DNA of 64,000 nt from assembly GCA_038205245.1 (NCBI GenBank), contig JBBRCD010000002.1, positions 113-64,112 of the forward strand, written 5' to 3'. Shown piece after piece: positions 21,192 to 42,375 of this stretch. Numbering within the stretch: the stretch's first letter is position 1; every line of letters starts with the position of its first letter. A program made the translations under genes and the position numbers. Source of the DNA: Burkholderiales bacterium (lineage in GTDB: Bacteria > Pseudomonadota > Gammaproteobacteria > Burkholderiales > CAIKXV01). The notes below the pieces were generated by a model. It ran no database searches, was not told where the DNA came from, and saw only the letters and a program-made list of their open reading frames with translations.

Positions 21192-21393
21192 CGGTCGGGA
21201 CAGAAGCTCAGCGCCAATAATTTCATTTCTGGCCTTCGATCATTACCGTAAACTACGGGTTTATCAAGCGCTCCGATGCCGTTGGCTGCGTCGTTGGCAA
21301 TACAGTTGTCTGCGAAGCTGTTTGCGCAGTTTTTGTTTACGCTGATGATGCGCGCCAGCGCGTGGTCCAATCGCCTCTCGAGCCTGCAGATCC

Positions 21394-23583
21394 ATGAGTG
21401 CCGTTCCGCGCAAGTCCCTTGGCAGATTCGAGATCGTCCGCACGCTGGGCCGGGGCGCGATGGGCATCGTCTACGAAGGTCGTGATCCCCGTCTGAACCG
21501 TCGGGTGGCGATCAAGACGATCCTGCGCAGTGCCATTCTGGACGACGAGGAGGCCAAGCAGTATGCGGCCAGATTCGTGCGCGAAGCGCAGGCGGTCGCG
21601 AGACTGACCCACCCGAACATCGTCGGCGTCTATGACTTCGGCGACCAGGACGACACCACCTTCATCGTGATGGAGTTCATCGACGGAAAGGAACTGAAGT
21701 CGCATCTGGACACCGGGAAGCCGTTCGACTTCCCGACCACAGTGCGGGTGATGAACGAGCTGCTCGGTGGCCTGGGTTATGCCCACAAGCAGGGTGTGGT
21801 CCATCGCGACATCAAGCCGGCCAACATCATGCTCGACAGCGCCGGCCGGGTGAAGCTCACCGACTTCGGCGTCGCCCGCATCACCGAGTCGGCCGAGCGT
21901 ACCCAGGCGGGCACGATGGTCGGCACGCCGAGCTACATGTCGCCGGAGCAGATCCAGGGCCTGCCGGTGGACAACCGCACCGATCTGTTTGCCTGCGGCG
22001 TCATCCTGTACCAGATGCTCACTGGAGAGAAGCCGTTCACTGGCGCCGGGACGTGGACGATCTACAACCAGATCCTGCAGCATGAGCCGCCGCCGGTCAG
22101 CACGATCAATGCCGGCCTGCCGCCGGCGGTAGACCGGGTGGTCAATCGCGCGCTGGCGAAGGACAAGAACGATCGTTATCGCAGTGCGAGCGAATTCTCA
22201 TCGGCGCTGACGGCGCTGCTGATGGGCACGCCGGAAGGTGTGAGTACAGGTGAAGCCGACGAGGAGGCCACGCAGTTCATCCTCGCCTCCGATGCGCAGC
22301 GCATGGCCGACTCGGCGGCACAACGCCTTGCCGACACGTCCGGCGCGCGCACCGCACCAGGTGCCCAGAGTTCGATTCCGCCGGGTGGCGCCAGCGCACA
22401 GGATGTCGAGCTGGAGTTCTGGCGTGCGATCAAGGACAGCAACGATCCGGCCGACTATGAGCTTCATCTGCAGAAGTTTCCGACCGGCGTGTATGGCGAA
22501 CTGGCACGCCGGAAGGCCGATCGTCTGCGCGCGTCGGGCACTCAGGCCGAGCCGACCTACGCCGCGACTTCGCGCGCGCCCGCTGCAGGAACCGAGCCGA
22601 CAATCAACGCCGGACGCGGCGCTGCGGCGCCAGACCTCGCAAGATCGGCGCAGCCCACTGCGCCGCCACCGGCCCGGGTTGAACAGAGCACACCGCAGCC
22701 CACCCGATCGGCGCCCGAACCGGGCAGCAATGACGGTGCAGCGGCGGGCCTCCCGTTACCGCTGGTCGCCGGTGGCATCGGCGGCCTGATCGCGCTGGCG
22801 GTGGGTGGCTGGATGATCTTCGGCGCCGGGTCGGCAACGGCGCCGGTGCCACCGCCGCAGCCTGCGCCGGTGGCGGCCCCGAAGAGCGCGCCGGTGCCGG
22901 CAAAGGCAACCCCGGTCCCGCCGCCGCCAGCGGTCGAGCAACCCGTGCGTCCGAAAGAGAACGAGGACGCGTTGCGCAAGATGGACTCGGCGATGGACCG
23001 GGCCAATGCCGATGTCGCCGCCGACAAGGCCGCGCTCGCCAAGGCTGCGGCAGAACGTGCAGCTGCGGAGAAAGCCGCTGCACGGGCGATCATGGATCGC
23101 GCTGCTGTCGACAAGGCTGCGGGCAAGGCTGCGGCCGATCGGGCTGCGGCCGACAAGGCGGCGGCGGACAAGAGCGCGGTCAAGGCAGCCAGCGATCGGG
23201 CTGCGGCAGAGAAGGCCGCCGCCGAGCGCAATGCTGCTGAACGGACAGCCGCCGAGCGTGCCGCGACTGATCGGGCCGCTGCCGAGCGCGCGGCCGCGGA
23301 GAAGGCAGCTGCTGAGCAACGTGCCGCAGCCGAGAGGGCGGCGGTCGAGAAACTGGCGGCAGAAAAAGCGGCCGTTGCGAAGGCTGCCGCGGAAAAGGCA
23401 GCTGCCGAGAAGGTCGCCGCCGACCGCGCAGCCGCTGCCGAGAAAGCTGCCGCTGCCGAGAAAGCTGCAGCAGCGGAGAAAGCCGCCGCCGCCGAGCGCG
23501 CGGCTGCGGCGCAGCGCCAGGACGCGGCAGCGTCGGCCAAGGCGAACGACGCCGCCAAACGAGCCGGTGGCCGTCAGAACTGA
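21394..23583 (+). CDS. Transmembrane Hanks-type Ser/Thr protein kinase with Pro-rich and Ala-rich (TolA-like) extracytoplasmic tail
   Basis: GRGAMGIVY...VAIK...HRDIKPANIML...DFGVA...GTPSYMSPEQ. One predicted TM helix (LPLPLVAGGIGGLIALAVGGWMIFGA, about residues 452-477). The C-terminal roughly 210 aa are AAEKAAAERAA-type low complexity. Confidence 0.9.
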   Translation: MSAVPRKSLGRFEIVRTLGRGAMGIVYEGRDPRLNRRVAIKTILRSAILDDEEAKQYAARFVREAQAVARLTHPNIVGVYDFGDQDDTTFIVMEFIDGKELKSHLDTGKPFDFPTTVRVMNELLGGLGYAHKQGVVHRDIKPANIMLDSAGRVKLTDFGVARITESAERTQAGTMVGTPSYMSPEQIQGLPVDNRTDLFACGVILYQMLTGEKPFTGAGTWTIYNQILQHEPPPVSTINAGLPPAVDRVVNRALAKDKNDRYRSASEFSSALTALLMGTPEGVSTGEADEEATQFILASDAQRMADSAAQRLADTSGARTAPGAQSSIPPGGASAQDVELEFWRAIKDSNDPADYELHLQKFPTGVYGELARRKADRLRASGTQAEPTYAATSRAPAAGTEPTINAGRGAAAPDLARSAQPTAPPPARVEQSTPQPTRSAPEPGSNDGAAAGLPLPLVAGGIGGLIALAVGGWMIFGAGSATAPVPPPQPAPVAAPKSAPVPAKATPVPPPPAVEQPVRPKENEDALRKMDSAMDRANADVAADKAALAKAAAERAAAEKAAARAIMDRAAVDKAAGKAAADRAAADKAAADKSAVKAASDRAAAEKAAAERNAAERTAAERAATDRAAAERAAAEKAAAEQRAAAERAAVEKLAAEKAAVAKAAAEKAAAEKVAADRAAAAEKAAAAEKAAAAEKAAAAERAAAAQRQDAAASAKANDAAKRAGGRQN

Positions 23584-26500
23584 TCAGGGCTTCGGTTTAC
23601 GCTTGAACTCGTCCGGCAGCAGCACGCCGAGATCGAAGATCGAGAACTCTCGCCCCAGCGGGCCGAGATCCTGCGAATCGCGTAGCAGTTGCCGGCGCAA
23701 CACGCCGGTACCCGAGGTCAGGTCGATCTGCTCGCGCTGGCTGTTGCCCAGAGCCACATAGACGATGGACGCGCCCAGTTGGGCCTGCGACTCGGCGAGC
23801 GAAACGCCAAGCGAGACGGTGTTGCCGACACAGTACTCGTTGAGGCAGTTCACCCGCGTCGTCGTCGACGGCTGGAAGAAGGCGGTGCCGGTGGGAGACA
23901 CGACGGCGCCAAAGCCCAGGGTCACCGTGCTCGCGGAGCCACCGATCGCCAGGCGCTGAGTGGAAGTTCCTATGCTGCCGCTAGCGAGGACGCTTTCGAT
24001 CGCCGGGCTGCGATTGGGCAATGCCGACAGGTCGACCGCGGAGCGCGCTGGCGAGATCAGAAGCAGGCGCAGATCCGGGACGGTCCAGACCGTGCCCGGC
24101 GCCTGCGAGATACCGACCCCACCTCCGGCGAAGGTCGCAGTGACCAACCCGAGCGGCGCGTTGAGCGTACCCATCGCGATGCCGCCAACGCTGTCATGGA
24201 TGTCGAACCGGGTGCCAATGAACGAGGCTGCGCCGGACGATCCGGGATTGGCGAAGTCGTTGCCGTCGTTACGCAGGGTGATGGTCGATGCCGAGCTGAT
24301 CGTGGTGTTGCCGCTGACCCGCACCGCGCTGCCCGCAGTCTGCGACACCGCCCCCGCCGACTGCAGGTTGAGCGAGGTCGCCTGCAGATTGCTTAGAGTA
24401 GTCGCCACACTGTTGGCAATGGTCACCGACCCGGCGCTGGGCAGACTGATCACCCCGGGCAGCACATTGCCCGGGTTGGTCAGGGCCACATCGCCGGTCG
24501 TGTTCAAGGTCACGCTGCCCGGTCCGGTCAACGCAGCGCTCACACTGACGATGTCGCTGCGGTCCAGAACCAGCGCCGAGTTGTTGATCACCGTACCCGT
24601 GCCCAGCGTGCCACTGGTGCCACCGCCACCCACACGCAAGGTCCCGGCGTTGATGCGGGTCGTTCCACTGTAGCTATTGTTGCCGGTGAGGAGTGTCGTG
24701 CCTGACCCGGACTGCACCAGCGCGCCGCTGCCGCTGATCGCATTGCCCACGGTGACGGTGTCACCCCGGTTGATCGCCAGAGTCGCGTTGTTGACTACTG
24801 CACCCGCGCCGAGTGTACCGGCGGCCCCGCCATCGCCGACCTGCAGCGTGCCCGCGCTGATCGTCGTCGTACCGGCATGGGTGTTGGTGCCGGTCAGCGT
24901 CGTCGTCCCGCTGCCGGCCTGCACCAGAGTGCCGGTCCCGCTTATCGAATTGGCCAGCGTTACCGCATCGCCGCGGTTGATCGTCAGCGACCCGTTATTG
25001 GTCACCGCACCGGAACCCAGGCTGCCGCTCGCGCCACCGTCCCCGGCCTGCAACCCGCCAGCCGCGATCACGGTGCCGCCTGTATAGCTGTTGTTGCCGG
25101 TCAGCGTGGTCGTGCCGGTACCCGACTGGGTCAGGCTGCCGCCGCCACTGATCGCGCCGGTCAAGGTCACCGCATCGCTTCGGTTCACCACCAGCGCTGC
25201 ATTGTTCAGCACCGTGCCGCTGCCCAGGCTTCCGGCAGTACCGCCGTTGCCGACCTGCAGCGTGCCCGAAGTGATCGTGGTTGGACCGGTATAAGCGTTG
25301 TTCCCGGTTAGCGTGGTCGTGCCGGCACCCGCCTGAATCAGCCCGCCACTGCCGCTGATCGGGTTGTTCAGCGTCAGCGCATCATTGCGATTGATCGCGA
25401 GGGTGCCACTGTTGGCGACCGTGCCGGTGCCGAGGGTTCCTGCAGCGCCACCATTACCGACCTGCAGCGTACCGGCACTGATCACCGTCGGCCCGCGGTA
25501 GGAATTGTTGCCGGTGAGTGCAGTCGTACCGGTGCCGGCCTGCGCCAACCCGCCGTCACCGCTGATCGCGTTGGCAACGACCACGGCGTCGCTGCGGTCG
25601 AAGGCGATCGTGGCACCACTGGCGACGCTCACGCCAGCAGCGCCGAGCGTGCCACTGGTGCCCCCGTCTCCGACGCGCAGCGTTCCGGCAGTCACCGTCG
25701 TCGCGCCTGCGTAATTGTTGGCACCGGTGAGTGTGGTGACACCACTGCCGGCCTGGGTGATACCCCCGGAACCGCCGAGCGCCGCCGACAGGGTGACCGC
25801 ATCGCTGCGGTTGATCGCGAGTGTCCCGTTGTTGGTCAGTGCACCCGTGCCAAGCGTTCCGCTGGTGCCGCCAGTGCCCACCTGCAGCGTGCCGGCGGCA
25901 ATGGTCGTGGTGCCGGAGTAGTTGTTGTTGCCCGCCAGCGATGTGGTCCCGGCCCCGGACTGGGTCAGCGAACCGGTGCCGGAGATGTCGCCAGCGAGGG
26001 TAACCGCATTGCTGCGATCGACGATCAGACTGCCGTTGTTGGTGATCGCGCCGCCACCGAGCGCTCCAGTCGTGCCGCCCGACCCGACCCGCAGCGTCCC
26101 TGCGCTGATCGTCGTCCCGCCTCCGTAGTCGTTGTTGGCAGTCAGGGTGGTGGTTCCACTGCCCGCCTGGGTCAGGCTGCCGCTGCCGGTTATGGTGTTG
26201 GTCAGGGTGACGGCATCGCTGCGATCGATCACCAGTTCGCCATTGTCGAGGACGGCCCCGGCACCAAGACTGCCGGTGGTACCGCCGCTGCCCACGCGCA
26301 AGACGCCGGCGCTGATCGTCGTGGTCCCGTAACTGTTGTTGACGGTGAGCGTCGTCGTCCCGCTGCCGGCCTGGGTCAGGGAACCGGTGCCGCTGATCGT
26401 GTTGGTGATGCTCAACGCATTGCTGCGGTTGACCACCAGCGCCGCGTTGTTCGTTACCGAGCCACTGCCGAGCGAACCGGTGGTGCCGCCAGCGCCGAGT

Positions 26501-29500
26501 TGAAGCGTGCCAGCGCTGATGGTGGTCGGGCCGGTGTAGTTGTTGCTGCCGGTCAGGATGGTCGTACCGCTGCCCGACTGGGTCAGGCTGCCAGTGCCAC
26601 CTATATCACCCGCCACGGTCACCGCGTCGCTGCGATTGACCACCAGCGCCGAATTGTTGGTCACCGCGCCGCCGCCGAGGCTGCCGCTGGTGCCACCGGC
26701 GCCGATCTGCAAGGTGCCCGCCGCGATGGTCGTGGTGCCGCTGAAGGTGCTGTTGCCAGTCAGCGTGGTCGTACCGGAGCCCACCTGATTCAGAACGCCG
26801 GTGCCGCTGATCGGGTTGTTCACGGTCAGCGCGTTGCTGCGATTGATCGCCAGCGTCGCATTGTTGATCACGCCCCCCCCGTTGCCCAAGGTGCCGATGG
26901 TGACGCCGTTGCCGACCTGCAGGGTGCCCGCGCTGATCGTGGTGGTGCCGGTGTAGCTGTTCGCCCCGGTCAGCGTGGTGATGCCGATACCGGCCTGGGT
27001 CAGACCGCCACTGCCGCCGATGCCCTGGGCAATGGTGACTGCATTGCTGCGATCGACGATCAGCGTACCGCTTACCGCAATCGCACCACTGCCCAGGCTG
27101 CCAGTGGCGCCGCCGGCACCGAGCGAAAGCGCGCTGCCTGTGGCCACTGTCGTCGACCCGGCATAGGTACTGTTGCCAGTCAGTGCCAGCGTGCCGGTGC
27201 CAGTGCGGTTGAACGTGGACGTTGTCGCGCCGACGATCTGGCCTGCGAAGGTGCCGCCGCTGCCGCCGACGTTCAGCGTCCCGGCGTTCAGCTGCACGGT
27301 CCCTGCGCCGCCCAGCCCCCCGATCGTCTGTGTGCCCGACCCGATGTCCAGCGTCGCACCGCTGGCGATCGAAGCCGCGCCAGTGCCATCGCCGAACCGG
27401 CCGGCGCCGGCGACCGTCAAGGTTCCACTGTTGACCGTGGTCGACCCCGAGTAGGTGTTCGCCGCAGTCAGCGTGAGGGCCGAGCCGCCCGACTGCGCGA
27501 TGCCGCCGCTGCCGGAGATCAGGTTGGCCACCGTGATCGCGTTGCTTCGATTGAAGGCAAGCGTACCGTTGGACACGACCGCGCCGGAACCGAGCGTGCC
27601 CGTGATACCGCCGTTTCCGACCTGCAGGGTCCCGGCATCGATGCTCGTCGTACCGCCATAGAAGTTTCCTCCAGTCAGTACGGTTGTTCCGCTGCCTGCC
27701 TGGGTCAGCGCCCCGCTGCCGAAGATCGCGTTGCCGATGGTCAGCGTGTTGCTCCGGTTGATCGCCAGCGTGGCGTTGTTGAAGACGGTACCACTGCCGA
27801 GTGTGCCGGTCGTGCCGCCATCGCCGAGTTGCAGTGTCCCAGCGCTGATCGTCGTCGTGCCAAGGTAGCCGTTGCTGCCGGTCAGTGTCGTCGTGCCGGT
27901 CCCGGCTTGGGTCAGCGAACCGAGCCCGTTGATCGCACCGCTGACAGTCACCGCATCGCTGCGATCGATCACCAGCGACGTGTTGTTGGTCACCGGCCCG
28001 GTACCCACGGAGCCGCTGGCACCACCACTGCCCACCCGCAGCGACCCGGCAAGGATCACCGTCGCGCCGGCATAGTCGTTGTTGCCGGTCAGCGTCGTCG
28101 TGCCGCTTCCCGTCTGGCGCACGCTGCCGCCGCCGGTGATCGTATTGCCGAGGGTCAACGCGTCGCTGCGGTTGACCACCAGCGCCGCATTGTTGGTCAC
28201 TGTGCCGGTGCCCAGGGTGCCGATCGTGCCCCCGTTGCCGACCTGCAGCGCACCCGCGTTGATCACGGTATCGCCATAGCTGTTGTTGCCGATAAGCGTG
28301 GTCGTGCCGGCACCGGCCTGGGTCAGACTCCCGCTGCCGCTCACCGCGTTGAACAACGTAACCGAGTCGCTGCGATTGATCGCGAGCGTGCCGTTGTTGG
28401 TCACCGGCCCGATGCCAAGGGTGCCGATCGTGCCACCGTTGCCGACCTGCAGCGTGCCGTCGTTTATCGTCGTGGGGCCGATGTAACTGTTTGTGGCCGT
28501 CAGCGTCGTAGTGCCGCTGCCCGCCTGGGTCAGCGCACCGGCTCCAGTGATGGGCTGGGCAATCGTGATCGCGTTGCTGCGATTCACGATCAGCGTGCCG
28601 GTGACCGAGATCGACCCGATGCCCCCCAGGCTGCCGGTGGTGCCGCCTGCACCGAGCGAAAGCGCGCTGCCGGCCGCCACCGTGGTCGATCCGAAGAACG
28701 CGCTGTTTGCAGTCAGCGCAAGGGTGCCACTGCCCGTTCGATTGAAGGTCGACAACGGAGAGCCGACGAGCTGCCCATCGAACGTCCCGCCAGTGCCGCC
28801 GACATTCAGCGTACCGTTGTTCAACTGTACCGCCCCGCCTCCGCTCAGGCCGCCGAACGTGTGAAAGCCTGAACCAATATCCAGCGTGGCGCCAGTGACG
28901 ACCGTGGCAGCGCCGGTGCCGATGCCGAACCGGCCTGCGCCGGATACGGTCAGCGTCCCGCTGTTGACTGTGGTGGGTCCGAAATAGATGTTCGCGGCAG
29001 TGAGCGTCACGGTCGAACTGCCGGACTGGGCGATACCGCCAGTGCCGGAGATCGCGTTGGCCACCGTGATTGCATTGCTGCGGTTGAACGCGAGTGTCCC
29101 CGGTGCGTCCACCGTCACCGACCCGCCGCCGAGCAAACCGCTGGTGCCGCCATTGCCGACCTGCAGCGTACCGGCGTCTATCGTCGTCGCCCCCAGGTGA
29201 AGATTGGCTCCGGTCAGCACAGTCGTGCCAGTACCGATCTGGTCGAGACCGCCGATGCCGATGATACGATTGCCGATGATCAGCGTATCGCTGCGGTTGA
29301 CGACCAGCGTTCCACTGTTCAAAACGTCGCCCGCCACCGCGCCCAGAGAACCGGCCGTTCCACCGCTGCCGATCTGCAGCGTTCTCCCCGGGTCGATCGT
29401 GGTGTCGCCGGAATAGCTGTTGCTACCGGTGAGCGTGGCCGTACCTGCGCCTGACTGCCTCAATGCGCCGGTACCACCGATAGCGTTGGCCACGGTCACT

Positions 29501-31842
29501 GCATTGCTGCGGTCGATCTGCAGCGTGCCGCTGTTGTTCACCACGCCGGCGCCCAGCGTGCCGGTGGCGCCGCCGCCGCCGATGTTGAGCGTGCCCGCGC
29601 TGATCGTCGTCGCGCCGAGATAGCTGTTGTTGCCAGTCAACGTGGTCGTGCCACCGCCAGACTGGATCAGGCTGCCGCTGCCGCTGATCGCGTTGCCCAC
29701 GGTCAGTGCATTGCTGCGGTCGATCTGCAGCGTCGCATTGTTGGTCACCGCGCCACTGCCCAGCGTACCGGCCGTGCTGCCGGCACCGACGCGCAGCGTC
29801 CCGCCGTTGATGGTCGTGGTGCCGATATAGCTATTGGCCTGATCGAGCGTCAACGTGCCAGTCCCGCCAGCAACCAGGTTGAGGTTTCCGGTCAGTGCCG
29901 CGGTCTGTGAGCCGGCGCCGGAATGCGCCAGGGTGATCGTCCCGCCTGCCCCGACATTGATCGCGCCCACGGCCAGCGTCGTGGCGCCGGTGACGGCAAC
30001 CGCTGCCGCGCCGGGGTTGGTGGTCGACAGCGTCCTGAGCACAACCGCGCCGCCCCCACCGTCGACCGCCAGCGTGCCACTGCCGGCGTCGATCGACTGG
30101 CCGACAGCCTGGCTGACCCCGGCAGTGCCGGCGGTGATCGACACCCCGGCGCCGATCACGTTCTGGTTGAGTTCGACCTTGCCGCCCGCGCCAGCAGTCA
30201 TCGCAATCGAACCGCCGAAACTCAGCGCGCCACCGACCGTGATGTCGTTGCCCGAATTCAGCACAAGCCCGCCGGTGCCGGTGTTGGTGATCGCGGCATT
30301 GATCGCGATGCTGCCACCGCCCGGTGCCGAATCCAGCGTCAGCGAGTTCGCGGTGTTGTAGGCAGACGCCGGCGTCGCCGCAACGGTGATGCTGCCCGTG
30401 CCCGGTCCGGTAGCGCTGGACGTCTGCACCACCACGTTGCTGCCCACCAGCGCCGCAAGGATCGTGGCCCATTGCAACGTGCCGCCGGTGCCCGCCGGAT
30501 CCGGCAGGAACGGATCCAACGCCGGCCCCGTACCCAGCACATCAGCGGTAGTCGCATTGCTGATGGTGATATCGAGTGGATCGAGCAGCAATCGACCGGT
30601 CAGGCCGAACGGCGCACTCAGATCGGCTGTGCCGCGGAAGTCGAGAAACCTGCGCCCGGAAACTTCGGCGAATCCGCCGCGCCCGCCTTGCGCGCCGCCG
30701 CGTGCGGTCACATGACCAAGGAATCGTGTCGACTGGTCCGACCAGACGATCACCGTACCGCCATCACCGTCGCGGCGGGCGCTGGCATCGATGATCACAT
30801 CGGGCGCGACATAGGTCGCCTGGGCATTCTGCTCCGGACCCAGGCCCTGAAAGTTGCCACCGACCAGGACCGTGCCGCCGCCGGCGCTGCCGCTGGCATC
30901 GATCCGCGCCGCACCGGTGAGTCCGACCCGCTCGCCCAGGATGCGGATCTCGCCACCGCGCAAGCCTGCAGTGGCGCCGAGGGCCTCGACCGTGCCGGAC
31001 ACATTCACCGTTCCCCGCTCGCCACCGGAGATGAACACCTCGCCGTTGCGCTCGACCACCGAGTTGGCCCGTACCACCCCGGACAGGTTGATCACGCTGG
31101 CGGTTGCCTCGCCCAGGGCCCGGGCGCTCAGCACCACCCGCCCACCCTCGGCGGTAATCGCGCCGGCGTTGTCGATCGAGGCGCGCAGCGCTGCGGCATC
31201 GACGTTCAGTCGCAACAGGCCGTCGCCGCGAAGATCGACGCTGACCCGATCGCCAGCGCCCAGCGCCACCGTACCGCCATTGGCCTGGATCGTTCCACGG
31301 TTGATTATCGAGGGTCCGATCAGCGCCACATAGCCGCCGTCGGCCGCGCGCAGACGGCCGTCGTTGATGATCGCGCCGCCAGCGCCTGCAACTGCAAACG
31401 TGTAGCGCCCGGCCATGAAGTCGGCATTGCCGAGCAACAGCGTCGAACCGACGAAGCCGCCGACATCGATCTGCGCATCGCGCCCGAACAGCACGCCGTT
31501 CGGATTGATCAGGAAGACCTGCCCGTTCGCCGACAGCCGGCCGAAGATCTCGGATGCACCGCTTCCGATCACCCGGTTCAGCACTACTGAACTCGCACTT
31601 GGCTGCACGAAGTTCACCGCATTGCCGGCCGCAATGCCGAAGCTCTGCCAGTCGATCGCAGCGCGCGGCGTCGACTGCTGGATGGTCAGCGTGTTGGGTG
31701 CAGAAGCGGAGATCGTGGCAGCGCCAGCGGTGACCTGCCCGCCGGTCGGCAAGCCGGCAGCCAGCACCGGCGTGCTGCCCAGCGCCGACAGGGCCAGCAA
31801 CACCGCTGCGTGCAGTGCAGACCTCCGTCTGAGTTGCCGCAT
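23584..31842 (-). CDS. Two-partner-secretion exoprotein (TpsA; filamentous-haemagglutinin-family N-terminal domain plus PATR-like beta-strand repeats)
   Basis: ORF 23584..31914 (TTG) trimmed to ATG 31842 (GGGGAAACGGGA upstream). Signal peptide MRQLRRRSALHAAVLLALSALGSTPVLAAG. TPS domain ...NFVQPSASSVVLNRVIGSGASEIFGRLSANGQVFLINPNGVLFG..., then GGFAEVSG. This is followed by about two dozen units of G.G.LTQAGSGTTTLTG.N.Y.G.TTI.AGTLQVG.GGT.G.LG.G.V.NN..L..NRSDA.T....I.G. Confidence 0.9.
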   Translation of the reverse strand: MRQLRRRSALHAAVLLALSALGSTPVLAAGLPTGGQVTAGAATISASAPNTLTIQQSTPRAAIDWQSFGIAAGNAVNFVQPSASSVVLNRVIGSGASEIFGRLSANGQVFLINPNGVLFGRDAQIDVGGFVGSTLLLGNADFMAGRYTFAVAGAGGAIINDGRLRAADGGYVALIGPSIINRGTIQANGGTVALGAGDRVSVDLRGDGLLRLNVDAAALRASIDNAGAITAEGGRVVLSARALGEATASVINLSGVVRANSVVERNGEVFISGGERGTVNVSGTVEALGATAGLRGGEIRILGERVGLTGAARIDASGSAGGGTVLVGGNFQGLGPEQNAQATYVAPDVIIDASARRDGDGGTVIVWSDQSTRFLGHVTARGGAQGGRGGFAEVSGRRFLDFRGTADLSAPFGLTGRLLLDPLDITISNATTADVLGTGPALDPFLPDPAGTGGTLQWATILAALVGSNVVVQTSSATGPGTGSITVAATPASAYNTANSLTLDSAPGGGSIAINAAITNTGTGGLVLNSGNDITVGGALSFGGSIAMTAGAGGKVELNQNVIGAGVSITAGTAGVSQAVGQSIDAGSGTLAVDGGGGAVVLRTLSTTNPGAAAVAVTGATTLAVGAINVGAGGTITLAHSGAGSQTAALTGNLNLVAGGTGTLTLDQANSYIGTTTINGGTLRVGAGSTAGTLGSGAVTNNATLQIDRSNALTVGNAISGSGSLIQSGGGTTTLTGNNSYLGATTISAGTLNIGGGGATGTLGAGVVNNSGTLQIDRSNAVTVANAIGGTGALRQSGAGTATLTGSNSYSGDTTIDPGRTLQIGSGGTAGSLGAVAGDVLNSGTLVVNRSDTLIIGNRIIGIGGLDQIGTGTTVLTGANLHLGATTIDAGTLQVGNGGTSGLLGGGSVTVDAPGTLAFNRSNAITVANAISGTGGIAQSGSSTVTLTAANIYFGPTTVNSGTLTVSGAGRFGIGTGAATVVTGATLDIGSGFHTFGGLSGGGAVQLNNGTLNVGGTGGTFDGQLVGSPLSTFNRTGSGTLALTANSAFFGSTTVAAGSALSLGAGGTTGSLGGIGSISVTGTLIVNRSNAITIAQPITGAGALTQAGSGTTTLTATNSYIGPTTINDGTLQVGNGGTIGTLGIGPVTNNGTLAINRSDSVTLFNAVSGSGSLTQAGAGTTTLIGNNSYGDTVINAGALQVGNGGTIGTLGTGTVTNNAALVVNRSDALTLGNTITGGGSVRQTGSGTTTLTGNNDYAGATVILAGSLRVGSGGASGSVGTGPVTNNTSLVIDRSDAVTVSGAINGLGSLTQAGTGTTTLTGSNGYLGTTTISAGTLQLGDGGTTGTLGSGTVFNNATLAINRSNTLTIGNAIFGSGALTQAGSGTTVLTGGNFYGGTTSIDAGTLQVGNGGITGTLGSGAVVSNGTLAFNRSNAITVANLISGSGGIAQSGGSALTLTAANTYSGSTTVNSGTLTVAGAGRFGDGTGAASIASGATLDIGSGTQTIGGLGGAGTVQLNAGTLNVGGSGGTFAGQIVGATTSTFNRTGTGTLALTGNSTYAGSTTVATGSALSLGAGGATGSLGSGAIAVSGTLIVDRSNAVTIAQGIGGSGGLTQAGIGITTLTGANSYTGTTTISAGTLQVGNGVTIGTLGNGGGVINNATLAINRSNALTVNNPISGTGVLNQVGSGTTTLTGNSTFSGTTTIAAGTLQIGAGGTSGSLGGGAVTNNSALVVNRSDAVTVAGDIGGTGSLTQSGSGTTILTGSNNYTGPTTISAGTLQLGAGGTTGSLGSGSVTNNAALVVNRSNALSITNTISGTGSLTQAGSGTTTLTVNNSYGTTTISAGVLRVGSGGTTGSLGAGAVLDNGELVIDRSDAVTLTNTITGSGSLTQAGSGTTTLTANNDYGGGTTISAGTLRVGSGGTTGALGGGAITNNGSLIVDRSNAVTLAGDISGTGSLTQSGAGTTSLAGNNNYSGTTTIAAGTLQVGTGGTSGTLGTGALTNNGTLAINRSDAVTLSAALGGSGGITQAGSGVTTLTGANNYAGATTVTAGTLRVGDGGTSGTLGAAGVSVASGATIAFDRSDAVVVANAISGDGGLAQAGTGTTALTGNNSYRGPTVISAGTLQVGNGGAAGTLGTGTVANSGTLAINRNDALTLNNPISGSGGLIQAGAGTTTLTGNNAYTGPTTITSGTLQVGNGGTAGSLGSGTVLNNAALVVNRSDAVTLTGAISGGGSLTQSGTGTTTLTGNNSYTGGTVIAAGGLQAGDGGASGSLGSGAVTNNGSLTINRGDAVTLANSISGTGTLVQAGSGTTTLTGTNTHAGTTTISAGTLQVGDGGAAGTLGAGAVVNNATLAINRGDTVTVGNAISGSGALVQSGSGTTLLTGNNSYSGTTRINAGTLRVGGGGTSGTLGTGTVINNSALVLDRSDIVSVSAALTGPGSVTLNTTGDVALTNPGNVLPGVISLPSAGSVTIANSVATTLSNLQATSLNLQSAGAVSQTAGSAVRVSGNTTISSASTITLRNDGNDFANPGSSGAASFIGTRFDIHDSVGGIAMGTLNAPLGLVTATFAGGGVGISQAPGTVWTVPDLRLLLISPARSAVDLSALPNRSPAIESVLASGSIGTSTQRLAIGGSASTVTLGFGAVVSPTGTAFFQPSTTTRVNCLNEYCVGNTVSLGVSLAESQAQLGASIVYVALGNSQREQIDLTSGTGVLRRQLLRDSQDLGPLGREFSIFDLGVLLPDEFKRKPKP

Positions 31843-31867
31843 TCCCGTTTCCCCTGGTGCCGATGAA

Positions 31868-31915
31868 CCCACAAACCAACGAACCAACAAGCCAACGAGC
31901 CAACAAACCAACAAC
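31868..31915. repeat. Octamer tandem repeat x6 (cccacaaa ccaacgaa ccaacaag ccaacgag ccaacaaa ccaacaac) in the tpsB-tpsA spacer
   Basis: CCAAC recurs at 31876, 31884, 31892, 31900 and 31908, an exact 8-nt period. Lies 26-73 nt upstream of the tpsA ATG. On the mRNA strand it reads (NNNGUUGG)n. Confidence 0.85.
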
Positions 31916-31972
31916 TGACTCGTCCCGGCTATCGGCGCGGGTTCAACGCGCCCGCACCCGTTGGAAACAACC

Positions 31973-33832
31973 CTACATCAAATCCTTGATCAGTTGCACC
32001 CAAACTCTTGGCGATCCGCGCGATTCTCCAGCCACCACGCTGTCACCGCCGGTACGCCAGGCCAGATCGACCCGCATCAGGTGCGAGCCCGGTCGGGACA
32101 CCCGCAATCCGAGACCCGCGCCCTGCAGTTTGTTGCTGGACGGCACCGGCACCGACTGGCCGCGCGAGCAGGACGCCGCATCATGACAGACGCTGCCTTC
32201 GGCATAGTCGTAGAACAGCGCAAGCGTCGACACCCCCAACCGGTCTGGCCGCAACTGGGCGACCTGCGGCGCGTAGCGCAATTCGCCCTGGAACAACGTG
32301 CCTTCGTCGACGATCAGCTGACCGGTGGGGAAAGCGCGCACGCCGGCCGGACCACCCAGACTGAGGCGCTCGGCCGAGGTGAGATTCTTGCTGGCGATCT
32401 GACCGAGCACCAGCATGGACAGCGACACCGGCCCGCCCCATTCGGCAATCGACTGGACGGTCTGCAGGTCATAGTTGACCTTGGTGAAGCTGCCGTTGGT
32501 GCCCGGTCCGAAGCGGTCGTTGGCCAGTTCAGCCGGGCTGCGGATGTCGACATCTCCCAGCGTCAGCAGCGCCGAACCGAGGGAGATCGACCCATTCTGC
32601 TGGCGGAAGTCGCCGAACACCCCGACCTTGCCCGACCTCACCCGCTTGTCGTTCAGCGTCGGCGGCTGCGTCGCGTCCACCGTGTCGGTAAGCAATTTGT
32701 AGTCGCCAACGATCTGGCCAAACAGATTGGCGTTGCGCGACCGGATGACCGGGTGGGTTGCGAACACCGAATAGCTGTCCGCCTGCCCCTTGGCCTGCAG
32801 ACTGGCGAACGAGCCGCCGAGTTCGTAGTTGACCCGGGTGTAGCCAGCGCCGATCCTGGTTCCGTACGGTCCGACCGGCAGAATGTAGCTCAACCGGCCG
32901 AGTTCGGTCAGCCGGTCTTCCTGCACCAGGAGGCGCAGGCCGAGCTGATCGCCCACGCCCAGCGGGTTGTTGAAGCGCAGGTTGACCCCGGCGCGCAGTC
33001 CGCCCGTGGCTTCACTGCCGCCGTTGTCCAGATCGACCGCAGCGCGCAGCCGCAGCGGCGCATCTTCGACCCGCACCACCAGATCACCCTCGCCAAGGTT
33101 ACGTCCCGGTCTGAGTTCCGAGTTGACTGCGGTCACACCGTTCAGGTCCTGAATCAACAGCAGGCGCCGCTCGAGGTCGTCTTCCCGGATCGGCACGCCC
33201 GCCTGCAGCGTGCCGAGAATGCGGTCGACGACCACCGGTTTCACCTGCGACAGCCCGGCCGTCTCGACTCTGACCCGGCCCAGCCGCCCCTCGACGATGG
33301 CGATCTCGACCACACCGTCGCGCACCTGCTGCTCCGGCAGATAGGCCACGACCGCCACATAGCCCGCCTTGCGATAGACCTCTTCGACCGCGCTCAACAG
33401 ATCGCGCAGGTTGGAGGCGTCCAGCGGCTTGCCAACGAAACCACGCACGGCTGCACCCAGCACATCGGCGCTCTGGCGCGAGTTTCCAGTAAAGCGGAAT
33501 CTGCCCGGCGCCACGCCGGAGACGCCTGACGACGGACGATCCGGCAGAGTCACCGTGGGTGCCGGCGGCGCCACACGCAGGGGTACGCCACGTGGCTCGC
33601 GGGTCTGCTCGAGCAGGGTTCCGGCGTCTGGTCTGGACGCTGGTAACTGCTGCGCATTAGCCGATGAAAACAAGGGCACAGGGAGCAACACTAATACTGC
33701 CATTGCTGCCAGACGAGCTGGCAGACTGGCCGGCAGATGAGCCCGGCAAATGGCCCGTCCGAGCAACCCCGGCACCCCCATGCCGATTGGCGCTCCGGCT
33801 ACCTCGATTTCGCTTTTCCCTATATTTTTCAT
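31973..33832 (-). CDS. Two-partner-secretion outer-membrane transporter (TpsB; ShlB/FhaC/HecB family)
   Basis: 619 aa. Signal-like MAVLVLLPVPLFSSANAQ. POTRA-type FRFTGNS...LSAVEEVYRKAGYVAVVAYLPEQQVRDGVVEIAIVEGRLGRVRVE. C-terminal beta-barrel rich in alternating aromatic residues. The start may instead be ATG 33781 (GGAG upstream). Confidence 0.9.
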   Translation of the reverse strand: MKNIGKSEIEVAGAPIGMGVPGLLGRAICRAHLPASLPARLAAMAVLVLLPVPLFSSANAQQLPASRPDAGTLLEQTREPRGVPLRVAPPAPTVTLPDRPSSGVSGVAPGRFRFTGNSRQSADVLGAAVRGFVGKPLDASNLRDLLSAVEEVYRKAGYVAVVAYLPEQQVRDGVVEIAIVEGRLGRVRVETAGLSQVKPVVVDRILGTLQAGVPIREDDLERRLLLIQDLNGVTAVNSELRPGRNLGEGDLVVRVEDAPLRLRAAVDLDNGGSEATGGLRAGVNLRFNNPLGVGDQLGLRLLVQEDRLTELGRLSYILPVGPYGTRIGAGYTRVNYELGGSFASLQAKGQADSYSVFATHPVIRSRNANLFGQIVGDYKLLTDTVDATQPPTLNDKRVRSGKVGVFGDFRQQNGSISLGSALLTLGDVDIRSPAELANDRFGPGTNGSFTKVNYDLQTVQSIAEWGGPVSLSMLVLGQIASKNLTSAERLSLGGPAGVRAFPTGQLIVDEGTLFQGELRYAPQVAQLRPDRLGVSTLALFYDYAEGSVCHDAASCSRGQSVPVPSSNKLQGAGLGLRVSRPGSHLMRVDLAWRTGGDSVVAGESRGSPRVWVQLIKDLM

Positions 33833-38000: not shown

Positions 38001-38936
38001 TCAGTCGCAGCGGCCGATCGAGGTCGAGGCGCAACGCCGGCCATCGGTCCAGATTGCGTTACCCAGCCGCGCCCGGGTGAGCTGAACCGCTTCCAGCTTC
38101 GCGTTGCGCAGGTCGGCGAAACTCAGGTCGGCGCTTTCCATACTGGCGCCCGACAGGTTGGCGCCGCTGAGGTTGGCACCGAACAGCCGCGCGCCGGACA
38201 GACGCGCGCCGGAGAGATCGGCGCCGGCAAGCTCGGCATAGGTCAGATCGGCGTTACGCAGGTCCGCCTCGGCAAACTTCACCCCGGACAACCGCGCCGC
38301 GCGCAGGTTGACCCCACCGAGCGCGGCGCCCTGCCGGTTACAGCCGGCCCAACTTACCCCGGGCGCCGGCGCTGCGGCGCAATTGGCCGCCAGCGAGCCA
38401 AGCGAGACCTCGATCGAGCTCGGCGCGCGCTGCCAGGTGGCAATGCCCACAGCCACCACCACGACCACCGCGGCTGCAATCGCTGGCAGCAGCCACCCCC
38501 GCGATGCCCCGCTGCGGTCGTAGGCCGCTGACAGTTCCCGGCGCAGCCGGCGCCAAAGCACGACCTGAAGCAGCTCACGCTGCTGCCTGCGCTCATCGAG
38601 CGAGCGGCGCTCCTCGGCAGACTCGACCTCGTCACCGGTGCGTCGATCCAGCCCGCTGCGCTCGTCCGCCCATCTTTTTGCCGCGGCCAGCCGCTCGTTG
38701 TGCCAGCTTATTGACGACGGTTCGTCGGACTCGGCCAGGGCGGCGCGTGCCGAAGGCTCGAGCGCCGCCAGGATTTCCGGGTACAGTTTGAGCGGTTGCC
38801 AGTTCCGGCCATCCATACTCGCCGGATCGTCCCAGGCGAAACGGCCGAGCAGCAGACAGTCGACGATCACCTTCCTCGGATGCGGCCCGATCAGCTTGCC
38901 TTCCCGGCGAACGTACCAGAGTGTCTGGGCCGTCAT
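38001..38936 (-). CDS. GYF_2 (DUF4339)-domain / single-TM / pentapeptide-repeat protein
   Basis: ATG 38936 overlaps the upstream gene's TGA (ATGA). N-terminus WYVRREGKLIGPHPRKVIVDCLLLGRFAWDDPASMDGRNWQPL. TM helix LLPAIAAAVVVVVAVGIATW. The C-terminus has more than 15 A(D/N)LxG pentapeptide units (ADLRNADLTYAELAGADLSGARLSGARLFGANLSGANLSGASM...). Confidence 0.75.
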   Translation of the reverse strand: MTAQTLWYVRREGKLIGPHPRKVIVDCLLLGRFAWDDPASMDGRNWQPLKLYPEILAALEPSARAALAESDEPSSISWHNERLAAAKRWADERSGLDRRTGDEVESAEERRSLDERRQQRELLQVVLWRRLRRELSAAYDRSGASRGWLLPAIAAAVVVVVAVGIATWQRAPSSIEVSLGSLAANCAAAPAPGVSWAGCNRQGAALGGVNLRAARLSGVKFAEADLRNADLTYAELAGADLSGARLSGARLFGANLSGANLSGASMESADLSFADLRNAKLEAVQLTRARLGNAIWTDGRRCASTSIGRCD

Positions 38937-40390
38937 CGGCGCTCGCCAGCGCAACTGCGGAAGCCTGCGAACACATCGCGCCGCTCCGGCGTGTAGAAGT
39001 TGCGCCAGGTGTTGCTGATCAGGTCAGCCGCCGTCGCGAAACAGCCCCCGCGAAGCACTTGATGGGTGCCGAACCACGGCTCGGAATACTCACGGTAGGG
39101 GTCGGTCACGAAGCCAGGGTAGGGCTGAAACTGCGAGGCAGTCCACTCCCAGACGTTGCCGATCATCTGCCGGCAGCCCCAGGCGCTGTCCCCGGCCGCC
39201 AGCGCGCCCGCCGCCAGCAAAGAAGACCCGCCCGCCCCGTCAGCAGACCATAGATTCGCCAATGCCGGGCCCGGGACCGTGGTGCCCCAGGGGTAGCGTC
39301 GACCGGGCGCATGATCCGGCCCGCCGCCAGGTACGGTCGCCGCTGCAAACTCCCACTCCGCTTCGGTCGGCAGGCGCCGACCGGCCCAGACGCACCAGGC
39401 TGCCGCCTCGTGCGCGTTGACATGGATCATCGGCTGATTCATCGGCAGCGCCTCCCATTGCTCGAACCGGCGCTGCTCCCACCCCTGCCGGCGCTCGAGT
39501 CGGCGCCAGTACGCCGGCGCGCTCGCCTCGGCCTGCCCGCGCCAGGCCCAGCCCGCTTCCGACCACCAGCGGCGCTCGGCATACCCGCCGTCTTCGACGA
39601 ACGCCAGGTACTCGGCCACCCGGGTCGTGCAACGGGCGATCGCGTAGGGCTCAAGACTGACCGGATGCGCCCATTTCTCGTTGTCGAAGGCGAACCCGGT
39701 ACCCGGTTCAGCGCCGAGCAGAAATCGTCCACCAGCGATTTCGACATCTCCGCCCGATACCGCGCCATTGGTGTACGCGCCCGAGCCCGGCCGGCTGCCG
39801 GCAAACTCGTCGCAGCGGGCGGTCACCGCCCAGGCCGGAGCAGTGTAGCCAAGCGACTGCGCACTGTAGACGAACGCTTCCGAGTGCATCTGTTCATGCC
39901 GTGCTGCGAGCTGCGCGAAGTAGGTTGTGGCGCCCGGGTGATCGCCCAGGCGCCGGCGCTCGCGCTCGAGTCCGTCAAGCGCGAGCGCCATCACCTTATC
40001 GAGCCAGACCCAGGTGGCGGCCAGCGAGGGCAACGGCAGGTCCCAGCGCAGTGAGTGCGCCACCTGTGCCGAGTCGTAAAGCGTATCTGCCCCGGGAAGC
40101 GACGATGGCGCGAGCGCGCCGTCGCCACGCGGGCGCAGCATCCAGCGTTCCTGGAACCAGCCCAGGTGGCCGAGTTCCCACAGCGGCGGATTGACGATCG
40201 GCAAGCGTGGACCGAGCAACGCCTCGCCGTCCAGGGACGCCATCACCGCCCGGGTACGCAACCGCGCCTCGACCAGCTGGCGCACACAGTCGTCGATCAG
40301 GCCCTCTGCCGGGCGCTCTGCCGTTGGCAGCGCCGCAGGCGCGGCATACGCATCAGGCACCGGTGCGATCCTGGTCTGCGGGCTGTACAT
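38933..40390 (-). CDS. EgtB/SenA-family C-S (or C-Se) bond-forming synthase (DinB-like N-domain plus FGE-sulfatase/SUMF1-like C-domain)
   Basis: 485 aa. LWELGHLGWFQE and ARHEQMHSEAF (DinB-type metal site). C-terminus GNVWEWTASQFQPYPGF...VLRGGCFAT...FRSC (FGE-like). The sequence alone cannot separate EgtB from SenA. Confidence 0.8.
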   Translation of the reverse strand: MYSPQTRIAPVPDAYAAPAALPTAERPAEGLIDDCVRQLVEARLRTRAVMASLDGEALLGPRLPIVNPPLWELGHLGWFQERWMLRPRGDGALAPSSLPGADTLYDSAQVAHSLRWDLPLPSLAATWVWLDKVMALALDGLERERRRLGDHPGATTYFAQLAARHEQMHSEAFVYSAQSLGYTAPAWAVTARCDEFAGSRPGSGAYTNGAVSGGDVEIAGGRFLLGAEPGTGFAFDNEKWAHPVSLEPYAIARCTTRVAEYLAFVEDGGYAERRWWSEAGWAWRGQAEASAPAYWRRLERRQGWEQRRFEQWEALPMNQPMIHVNAHEAAAWCVWAGRRLPTEAEWEFAAATVPGGGPDHAPGRRYPWGTTVPGPALANLWSADGAGGSSLLAAGALAAGDSAWGCRQMIGNVWEWTASQFQPYPGFVTDPYREYSEPWFGTHQVLRGGCFATAADLISNTWRNFYTPERRDVFAGFRSCAGERR

Positions 40391-40494
40391 CGTCGATCAA
40401 GCTCCCTAACATCGCCCGGCGCTACCGGTGGCCTCACCTGTCCGGAGGCACAGCGACACCCCCGAGTTTACGCGCGAACCTGCGCTACCCGCCG

Positions 40495-41508
40495 ATGCAG
40501 ATTTCGCTCGTTACACCGGCCCCACCCGCATCGCGCGCCGGCAACCGCAACACCGCGGTGCGCTGGGCACGCCTGCTGCGCCAGTCGGGTCATCGAGTGC
40601 GCATCTGTACCCAGTGGCGGCCCGCCGCCATGTGTGCGCTGGAGGCCGGTGCGCCGACCGAACTGCTGCTCGCGCTGCACGCCAGGCGTAGCCACGAGTC
40701 CATCGTGCGCTTCCGGGCCGCGCTGCCGCACCGACCGATCGTGCTGGTGCTCACCGGCACCGATGTGTACCGCGACATCATCGACGACCGCCAGGCCCAG
40801 CGCTCGCTGCAACTGGCAGACCGGCTGGTCGTACTGCAACCGCGTGCGCTGGACGAGCTGTCGACCGATCTGCGCGCGCGCGCCCATGTGGTGATCCAGT
40901 CGGCACCCGCAGCCCCCGCGGTCGAGCCGCTCAGGCGCAGCTTCGAGCTTTGCGTGGTCGGGCATCTGCGGGACGAGAAAGACCCGCTGTGCGCCGCACG
41001 TGCGCTGCCGGCGCTGGTGCCCCCGCTGCTTGCCGCCCCGCTTGCCGCCCGGCTTCGCATCACCCAGGTCGGGCGCGCCCTCGACCCGGACCTTGAACGC
41101 GAGGCGCGCGCTGCGATGCGCGCAGACCGGCGCTACCGCTGGCTGGGCGAAGTCGCACCGTGGCGCGCTCGTCGGCTGATTGCCCGCTCGCGCGCGATGA
41201 TCATCAGTTCGCGCATGGAGGGTGGCGCAAACGTCGTGTCAGAGGCGATCGCCGCCGGCACCCCGGTGCTCGCCTCGCGTATCCCTGGCAACCTCGGTCT
41301 GCTCGGTGAGGACTGGCCAGCCTGCTACCCGGTCGGAGACGCCGGCGCACTGGCCAGATTGATTGCGCGATTCGCAACCGACCCGGCGTTTCGAGCGATG
41401 CTGCAGCGGGCGATCGACCGGCTCGCCGGTACGGTCGACCCCGATCAGGAGCGCGCGGCGCTGGATTCGGTAATCGCGGCTGCGGCAGCTGGTCCGCCCA
41501 TGCGGTAG
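40495..41508 (+). CDS. Glycosyltransferase, SenB (selenosugar synthase)-like family
   Basis: ORF trimmed to ATG 40495. MQISLVTPAPPASRAGNRNTAVRWARLLRQSGHRV...LALHARRSHESI...LTGTDVYRDI...SSRMEGGANVVSEAIAAGTPVLAS. This resembles, from memory, the GT family that co-occurs with EgtB-like and SelD genes. Needs HMM confirmation. Confidence 0.6.
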   Translation: MQISLVTPAPPASRAGNRNTAVRWARLLRQSGHRVRICTQWRPAAMCALEAGAPTELLLALHARRSHESIVRFRAALPHRPIVLVLTGTDVYRDIIDDRQAQRSLQLADRLVVLQPRALDELSTDLRARAHVVIQSAPAAPAVEPLRRSFELCVVGHLRDEKDPLCAARALPALVPPLLAAPLAARLRITQVGRALDPDLEREARAAMRADRRYRWLGEVAPWRARRLIARSRAMIISSRMEGGANVVSEAIAAGTPVLASRIPGNLGLLGEDWPACYPVGDAGALARLIARFATDPAFRAMLQRAIDRLAGTVDPDQERAALDSVIAAAAAGPPMR

Positions 41509-42368
41509 ACATGGAGCGCCGACCCGGTCGCATCGTCGACCGGCAGCGTGCGCTCAGGCGCCACGCCCGGCACCGGAAAGCTGTTGCTGATGAACAGCGA
41601 CCCGGCCTGCATCTCGCCGGTCGCCTTCGCCCATAGCCGGGCCATGGGCACCGGCGACAGATAGGCGTACACCACGTCGGCGCCCGACAGGTCCTGCTTC
41701 CACAGGTCCTGCCGCCTCACCGTCACCCGGTTCGGCGACGCCAGGCTGCGCAGGCGGCTCACTGCAAAGGGCAGCCAGGCCGTCTCCAGCCCGAGGCATT
41801 CATCGGTAGGCCGTTCCCGCCCGACGCTGCACACCACACCTCCTAACCCGCAGCCCAGGTCGACGAAGCGGATCGGAGTACCGGTCGGCAACAGTTCCAG
41901 CAGGCGATCGCAGGCAGCGCTGCTGGTGAGAAACAACGGTACCCGCTCGCGCAAGGCATTGCCGTTGGTGACCGCCAGGGCGCCGGCGAAACCCAGGTAG
42001 ATCCAAGGCGGCGGATCGATCCGCCCGAGCAGCAATGCTGCCGGGGCGAACGCGCTGTGCATCACGATCCACCATTGCGCCTGGCCAGTAGCGGTGGCCA
42101 GCAGCACGGCGATGCCGGCCTGCAGGAGCGCCCAGAGCGTCCACGGCGTATCGATTGAAGCAACTTCGGCAACGCAGTAAAGGGCCAGTGCAGCGGCGGT
42201 TGCCACCACCTGAATCAGCAGGCCGGCGAGCGCAGGGGGCATCCGCTCCAGGCTGTGCGCGAGCAACTGGCCACGGGCAAAGCCCCTTGCCCTGCCCGCT
42301 TGCCGGCCCTCGGCCAGAGCCAGGGTTACCGGCTCGGGCACCGGTGCAGCTGGCCGGGATTCGCTCAT
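41445..42368 (-). CDS. Membrane-anchored class I SAM-dependent methyltransferase
   Basis: ORF trimmed to ATG 42368, just after the motB stop at 42376. About 4 N-terminal TM helices, then VDLGCGLGGVV (motif I) ...ADVVYAYLSP...LFISNSF. The 3' end overlaps the convergent GT gene by 64 nt. Confidence 0.6.
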   Translation of the reverse strand: MSESRPAAPVPEPVTLALAEGRQAGRARGFARGQLLAHSLERMPPALAGLLIQVVATAAALALYCVAEVASIDTPWTLWALLQAGIAVLLATATGQAQWWIVMHSAFAPAALLLGRIDPPPWIYLGFAGALAVTNGNALRERVPLFLTSSAACDRLLELLPTGTPIRFVDLGCGLGGVVCSVGRERPTDECLGLETAWLPFAVSRLRSLASPNRVTVRRQDLWKQDLSGADVVYAYLSPVPMARLWAKATGEMQAGSLFISNSFPVPGVAPERTLPVDDATGSALHVYRMGGPAAAAAITESSAARS

Positions 42369-42375
42369 CGACACC

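Follow-up and report, generated by a model that had tools for sequence, protein, structure and literature searches.

A probable two-gene selenoneine cassette, senA and senB, in an uncultured betaproteobacterium

Does a gene for an EgtB-like synthase, divergent from a glycosyltransferase gene, belong to selenoneine synthesis when selD, the gene for selenophosphate synthetase, is not beside it? The question is raised by a 64,000-nucleotide stretch of DNA of a Burkholderiales bacterium (GenBank assembly GCA_038205245.1, contig JBBRCD010000002.1, positions 113 to 64,112 of the forward strand), which is called the window below. An earlier note, made from the letters of this DNA, had proposed a SenA-like synthase and the selenosugar synthase SenB there. 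Enzymes of these two families put selenium onto a histidine derivative, and the product is the antioxidant selenoneine. Our analysis indicates that the locus is very probably a minimal two-gene selenoneine cassette, with senB and senA transcribed away from each other, and a fixed part of this uncultured betaproteobacterium's core chromosome. The list of open reading frames (ORFs) and a direct reading of the sequence confirmed both genes with the coordinates and spacer that the earlier note had given:

38933–40390, minus strand: senA, predicted selenoneine synthase, 485 amino acids (aa); NCBIfam model NF041186, Pfam domains, PDB match and composite motif.
40391–40494, no strand: divergent senA/senB spacer of 104 bp, read directly from the sequence; presumed to hold two promoters.
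40495–41508, plus strand: senB, predicted selenosugar synthase, 337 aa, a Se-glycosyltransferase of the GT-B fold; model TIGR04348 and PDB match.

The 485-aa frame is taken from the ORF list. The 337-aa frame starts at the first ATG, at 40495, inside a longer plus-strand ORF.

The synthase and the glycosyltransferase

The synthase scores 481.8 bits against the NCBIfam SenA model NF041186, above the equivalog cut-off of 420, and 305.8 bits against the EgtB model TIGR03440, below the cut-off of 360. The EgtB-type architecture ascribed to the 485-aa protein was recovered by Pfam, with DinB_2 at residues 38–169 and FGE-sulfatase/C-lectin at residues 216–478. The motifs quoted earlier for the two proteins (HEQMHSE, GNVWEWT, RGGCF and MQISLVTPAPPASRAGNRNTAVRWARLL) are all found in the translations. 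The top PDB match of the synthase is V. paradoxus SenA (8k5i/8ryz, 292 bits), and the other matches include M. thermoresistibile EgtB (4x8b, 245 bits) and OvsA (8ux5/8u41, 245/234 bits). Pairwise identity does not separate these families. Therefore, we used the published active-site classification, in which 17-position motifs define the classes: xNEH--HRHxHYYN(F/Y)(F/Y)R for SenA, xNEH--HRHxHYMQAYR for OvsA and xSDH--RRHQHYYNWDR for type I EgtB, or EgtB-I (Kayrouz et al. 2024, PMC11030361). To map the residues, the window protein was aligned position by position with the structures of EgtB-I, of OvsA in its wild-type and engineered (OvsA-YNF) forms, and of SenA. The mapping covers 14 of the 17 positions, that is, all but the first (x) and the two gap positions.

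The mapped residues are N67, E72 and H75; H112 and R115; H165, M168 and H169; Y432 and Y435; and N464, F465, Y466 and R470. Judged by this alignment, the composite motif is that of the SenA class, and neither that of EgtB-I nor that of OvsA. His112 stands in place of the thiol-binding Arg87 of EgtB, and Tyr466 in place of Asp416; both substitutions have been reported for all SenA proteins. The Ser and Asp that EgtB carries near its first His are replaced by Asn67 and Glu72. Tyr435, Asn464 and Phe465 correspond to the hercynine-accepting state. Their counterparts in OvsA are Met, Gln and Ala (M401/Q430/A431), and the introduction of Tyr, Asn and Phe at these three positions turns OvsA into a SenA-like enzyme (PMC11030361). 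In a rough neighbour-joining tree, the window SenA groups with the SenA of the nearest related genome (L001) and with that of V. paradoxus, apart from M. thermoresistibile EgtB. Model scores, motif and tree all agree with the earlier preference for SenA over EgtB.

The description of the synthase as a divergent SenA has to be given up. A loop of about 55 residues (356–410) is present in the window SenA, in EgtB-I and in OvsA, and V. paradoxus SenA lacks it. Our survey sample consists of 80 loci from a SenA scan of species-representative genomes; L082, L083 and L084 are metagenome contigs. The loop is kept in 78 of the 80 related SenA genes, and the exact composite motif of the window SenA is the commonest among them (40/80). 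The window protein is a mainstream SenA and not a divergent one, and the V. paradoxus enzyme is the shortened outlier.

The glycosyltransferase was identified as SenB with 377.1 bits against TIGR04348 (cut-off 300). The second-best family reached 116 bits. The earlier assignment holds. Pfam finds a GT4-type Glycos_transf_1 domain, and the top PDB match is V. paradoxus SenB (8jjn/8fbx, 188 bits). Mutagenesis of the V. paradoxus enzyme has shown that K158, E231, E239, N20/T23 and T83/T85 are essential (PMC10891094). Residues N17, T20, H62, T87, T89, D90, R159, K162, E242 and E250 of the window SenB are the conserved equivalents of N20, T23, H58, T83, T85, D86, R155, K158, E231 and E239, respectively. 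Every catalytic residue identified in the V. paradoxus SenB structures has its counterpart in the window SenB.

The V. paradoxus pathway, which has been reconstituted, suggests the following mechanism by homology. SelD, encoded elsewhere in the genome, would make selenophosphate. SenB would act as a metal-independent inverting GT-B glycosyltransferase, in which selenophosphate attacks C1 of UDP-N-acetylglucosamine (UDP-GlcNAc) or UDP-glucose (UDP-Glc), and Lys162, the equivalent of K158, would aid Se–P cleavage to give a 1-seleno-beta-sugar. SenA would be a non-heme Fe(II)/O2 enzyme with Fe(II) bound to H75, H165 and H169 and with Tyr432 as the catalytic residue. It would join the selenosugar to C2 of hercynine, supplied by an EgtD or an importer that is likewise encoded elsewhere. 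The resulting selenoxide would lose its sugar by spontaneous internal elimination and, after reduction, yield selenoneine.

Missing partners and the layout of related loci

The earlier note had seen neither senC/selD nor egtA, egtC, egtD or egtE around the pair, and our searches bear this out. A tblastn search of the 64-kb window with E. coli SelD gave a best E value of 1.2, and none of 21 SelD/SenC sequences taken from the sen loci of relatives matched it at E<1e-3. With two EgtD sequences, the best E value in the window was 0.52. The NCBIfam scans of the other called window genes returned no egt or sel families. There is also no TIGR04553-type selenate-binding protein and no selenate transporter in the window, and a search of the window for tRNA-Sec found no tRNA genes. 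With no selD/senC within about 5 kb, the distance that defines the three-gene senABC cluster, the locus has the two-gene senAB form. Selenophosphate (from SelD/SenC) and hercynine (from EgtD) would have to come from genes outside the window. The selD gene commonly lies elsewhere in genomes, because it is also needed for selenocysteine and selenouridine synthesis.

No exact copy of the window SenA was found in public assemblies. Its best match among the species-representative genomes has 60% identity. A 99%-identical SenA occurs on two short environmental metagenome contigs, whose DNA is 98.7–99.3% identical to the window, and all remaining homologues have 61% identity or less. Where the homologues are named, NCBI calls them SenA or, in older records, EgtB. 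The nearest genome, L001, is a metagenome-assembled genome (MAG) of Betaproteobacteria. It shows full synteny in the order motA, motB, methyltransferase-like gene, senB and the divergent senA, pentapeptide gene, DUF4126 gene, ppsR and ppsA. Between the window and L001, identity is 90% for ppsA, 92% for motA and 86% for motB, 70% for SenB and 60% for SenA; the sen genes are thus far less conserved than their housekeeping neighbours. L084, an 866-kb metagenome contig, has the same gene order from lpxA through the TpsA gene, and in five Burkholderiales MAGs (L002–L006) a divergent senB/senA pair likewise occupies this slot, flanked by lpxB-rnhB and ppsR. Its recurrence at one and the same place across L001–L006 and L084 marks the pair as long established there and passed on by vertical descent. 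Contig L082 (JGI 3300009032) matches the window at 98.7% from position 661, bases 1–660 being unmatched, and its senB is cut after residue 51. Either the contig is a chimera that arose in assembly, or senB is disrupted in this strain.

Among the 80 related loci, senB adjoins senA in 67. The pair is divergent in 31 of these, including the six closest relatives, and co-directional in 35. ORF clustering found SelD in 21 of the 80 loci, and several of these proteins are fused to a pyridine-nucleotide-disulfide oxidoreductase (TIGR03169). An egtD gene is nearby in 16/80 loci and a putative selenate ABC transporter in 8/80. Of the senA-senB pairs, 32 are flanked by 5 kb or more of sequence on either side; selD is in the locus in 13 of them and absent, within about 5–10 kb on each side of the pair, in 19. 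In the original survey, 827 three-gene clusters with both partners within 5 kb were found for 2,353 TIGR04348 genes (Kayrouz et al. 2022). A precedent for a split layout is given by Marinobacter vinifirmus, in which the ovs genes are chromosomally separated. The senAB layout without a neighbouring selD is the commoner one among the relatives, since it accounts for 19 of the 32 flanked pairs and since only 827 of 2,353 genes form three-gene clusters. The earlier remark that the locus is unlike the three-gene layout is correct in that selD is not in the window, but the locus does not depart from the norm. This suggests that the textbook three-gene sen cluster is a minority arrangement and that most relatives rely on a selD, and often an egtD, located elsewhere. 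Because most relatives carry senA-senB alone, genome mining that requires selD adjacency would miss most producers.

Several variants were seen in the survey. In L010, L025, L054, L058, L064, L065 and L077, the hercynine-contacting Asn-Phe is Thr-Tyr (...YYTYYR), which lies outside the published SenA motif; one of these seven, L058, was tested and passes the SenA hidden Markov model with 495 bits. L054, L058 and L077 are self-sufficient four-gene clusters, in which senB is divergent from senA, egtD and an oxidoreductase-SelD fusion gene. A betaine-type ABC transporter with a fused binding protein and permease accompanies egtD near SenA-motif genes in L007, L010, L012, L018, L023 and L047. In the first four of these no senB was detected within the locus sequence, and in L023 and L047 senB is adjacent. 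The transporter resembles ergothioneine/betaine importers, which suggests a variant supply of hercynine or of the selenium donor. Six deltaproteobacterial/Binatia senA-senB loci have a beta-N-acetylglucosaminidase-like gene immediately upstream. Four of them (L022, L030, L040 and L043) additionally have an AmpG-type transporter gene just downstream, and L024 and L037 have the hydrolase gene only. The glucosaminidase and AmpG genes may be connected to the turnover of a GlcNAc-based selenosugar.

Spacer, flanking genes and chromosomal surroundings

In the metagenome contig L083, which is near-identical to the window, the 104-bp spacer has exactly the same sequence. The window and its 79%-identical relative L001 share a GAGTTTAC box, which precedes the ATG of senB by about 28 nt. 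Neither a terminator nor an Rfam element (riboswitch) was found in or around the spacer. The other features referred to here are the following:

38001–38936, minus strand: membrane pentapeptide-repeat protein, 311 aa; Pfam Pentapeptide, E 1.3e-23.
41445–42374, minus strand: methyltransferase-like protein, about 309 aa, with a weak class I S-adenosylmethionine (SAM)-methyltransferase domain.
23584–33832, minus strand: two-partner secretion pair, a 2,776-aa TpsA and a TpsB, from family scans.

The pentapeptide protein carries its repeats in the C-terminal part; it also has a single hydrophobic segment and a short domain at the N terminus. The start of its gene overlaps the senA stop by 4 nt (ATGA), and the same call is made in L082, L083 and L084; therefore, the gene is probably co-transcribed with senA. 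Only in the closest lineage (L001, L082, L083 and L084) does it follow senA. Full-length homologues with 37–40% identity stand beside PBP1b, Memo and nusA genes in loci without sen genes. A functional link of this protein to the sen pathway is unproven. We rejected it as a general sen accessory, given the unrelated contexts of the distant homologues and the RNA methyltransferase gene that occupies its place in other Burkholderiales.

The methyltransferase-like protein has hydrophobic N-terminal segments that, on reading the translation by eye, are probably membrane-spanning. Its best PDB matches are small protein-lysine/RNA methyltransferases (E ~1e-6). The gene is convergent with senB and overlaps it by 64 bp at the 3' ends, likewise in L083 and L084, and it was found only in the closest lineage. 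It begins directly after the motB stop, and the L084 calls give a 4-nt overlap with motB. Therefore, we place it in the motAB unit. EgtD and OvsM were considered as identities for it and rejected: there was no match to the Pfam or NCBIfam EgtD families and no OvoA-type match.

The other called genes of the window were scanned with NCBIfam and Pfam to set the gene order. The window starts with cheR, cheW, two methyl-accepting chemotaxis protein (MCP) genes, cheA, a cheY-like gene and a third MCP gene. These are followed by ftsB, eno, kdsA, pyrG and pckG, then by a sulfonate-type ABC transporter. Next come the genes for a TagH-like FHA protein and a Ser/Thr kinase, the TpsA/TpsB pair, ppsA, ppsR and DUF4126, then the pentapeptide-repeat gene, senA and the divergent senB, the methyltransferase-like gene, motB, motA and rnhB. 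The window ends with the block lpxB-lpxA-fabZ-lpxD-skp-bamA-rseP-dxr-cdsA-uppS-pyrH-tsf-rpsB, then map and glnD. The G+C content is 62–70% throughout. The sen pair resides in the core chromosome, between rnhB-motAB and ppsR-ppsA.

Two other loci of the window were recorded. At 20097–23583, the TagH-like FHA-domain gene is divergent from a gene for a 744-aa Ser/Thr protein kinase; no further type VI secretion genes were seen among the window genes. In the TpsA-type exoprotein, at least 18 autotransporter-type beta-strand repeats accompany an N-terminal haemagglutinin domain, and a ShlB/FhaC-type TpsB is encoded alongside. This pair is also present in the syntenic relative L084.

Alternative readings and known systems

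Four findings speak against a selenoneine cassette. In pairwise comparison, the synthase shares 41% identity with V. paradoxus SenA, 39% with M. thermoresistibile EgtB and 35% with OvsA, values that alone do not separate the families. No sigma-70 consensus promoter was recognised in the spacer. The window SenB differs from the V. paradoxus enzyme at two non-essential sugar-contacting positions, V157 being Glu (E161) and H235 being Asn (N246; EGGANV instead of EGGAHV); therefore, its UDP-sugar preference may differ too. Among the 67 relatives with SenB, Asn at the H235 equivalent is almost universal, and Glu and Val are about equally frequent at the V157 equivalent. Finally, neither selD nor egtD lies within the 64 kb, and the complete pathway is not demonstrable from the window. 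We consider it very improbable that the neighbouring glycosyltransferase is an unrelated GT4 enzyme and the synthase a true EgtB, which makes ergothioneine sulfoxide. The 305.8 bits with the EgtB model, an identity to EgtB near that to V. paradoxus SenA, and the 55-aa loop, found in EgtB-I and missing from V. paradoxus SenA, would fit a true EgtB. However, the EgtB score stays under its cut-off and the SenA score exceeds its own, Arg87/Asp416 are His112/Tyr466 and Ser/Asp are Asn67/Glu72, and the loop is found in 78/80 relatives with the SenA motif. The neighbouring glycosyltransferase passes the SenB equivalog model, senB is paired with the synthase gene in 67/80 relatives, and egtA, egtC, egtD and egtE were not found nearby. 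An OvsA-type enzyme, which would selenylate C5 of free histidine on the way to ovoselenol, with the methyltransferase-like gene as OvsM, is extremely improbable. Where OvsA has M401/Q430/A431, the window protein has Y435/N464/F465, the SenA state, as in OvsA-YNF. The supposed OvsM is a membrane-anchored protein weakly similar to protein-lysine/RNA methyltransferases (E ~1e-6), and its gene directly follows the motB stop and is confined to the closest lineage. According to the literature, the members of the OvsA clade are almost exclusively aquatic gammaproteobacteria. In favour of this assignment, OvsA and SenA are sister clades that both pair with senB, OvsA aligns with the window protein over the full length including the loop (234–245 bits), and a class I methyltransferase-like gene is convergent to senB.

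It is unlikely that the pair is orphaned in a genome without selD, the genes being idle or using another donor, for instance a sulfur analogue, from which a thiosugar would arise and, slowly, products of the ergothioneine type. There is no selD in the 64 kb, nor within about 5–10 kb on each side of 19 of the 32 well-flanked pairs in relatives, and SenA accepts thioglucose, although very poorly (Kayrouz et al. 2022). The thiosugar, however, gives a sulfoxide that undergoes much slower elimination (Kayrouz et al. 2022). Both ORFs are intact, every catalytic residue is conserved, and synteny is kept across lineages despite 60–70% identity; these features point to purifying selection for function. 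As noted above, selD is commonly encoded elsewhere and shared with selenocysteine and selenouridine synthesis. We give little credence to a further variant, in which the lineage has no selD at all and senAB, perhaps with the pentapeptide protein, uses a SelD-independent selenium donor or a sulfur analogue. If true, selenium or sulfur would reach histidine-betaine antioxidants by a route that bypasses SelD.

As a two-gene selenoneine cassette, the locus is an ordinary example of a system that has already been described and curated, and whose genes the NCBI pipeline would name automatically. With it, the likely selenoneine producers include a further uncultured lineage of betaproteobacteria; it leaves the current understanding of the pathway unchanged. 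The V. paradoxus enzymes are atypical in the SenA loop and in the His of the SenB motif EGGA(H/N)V, which matters when structural conclusions are transferred.

Compared with known systems, EgtB type I of M. thermoresistibile (4x8b) shares with the window SenA the fold, the domain order, the three-His triad, the catalytic Tyr, the hercynine-binding Tyr/Asn and the loop at 356–410. It differs in the thiol-binding Arg87, Asp416, Ser and Asp, which are His, Tyr, Asn and Glu in the window SenA; the latter also falls under the EgtB cut-off and has no egtACDE neighbours. OvsA of Halomonas utahensis (8u41) represents the sister clade, uses the SenB selenosugar and aligns full-length with the window SenA, but its substrate-selecting residues are Met/Gln/Ala, in contrast to the hercynine-accepting Tyr/Asn/Phe.

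The senABC system of V. paradoxus DSM 30034 (Kayrouz et al. 2022) consists of the same two equivalog-level families, and both organisms are betaproteobacteria. The SenA proteins share the iron triad, the catalytic Tyr, the hercynine-binding Asn/Phe and the selenosugar-binding Asn/Glu/Arg, and the SenB proteins share the equivalents of K158, E231, E239, N20/T23 and T83/T85/D86. In V. paradoxus, the genes form one operon with senC, whereas in the window they are divergent and senC/selD is absent within 64 kb. V. paradoxus SenA is about 41% identical to the window SenA and lacks the 55-aa loop (356–410). At V157 and H235 of V. paradoxus SenB, the window has Glu and Asn; Asn is the majority residue in the relatives, and Glu is about as common as Val. 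The loci L001–L006 and L084, which NCBI names SenA/SenB and which are uncharacterised, share with the window the divergent two-gene layout without selD, the same slot and identical composite motifs. The nearest of them is 60–62% identical in SenA, 70–71% in SenB and 90% in ppsA. L002–L006 lack motAB as well as the genes for the methyltransferase-like and pentapeptide proteins, and the gene downstream of their senA encodes an RNA methyltransferase, whereas L001 and L084 share the whole window synteny, with the motAB, methyltransferase-like, pentapeptide and DUF4126 genes.

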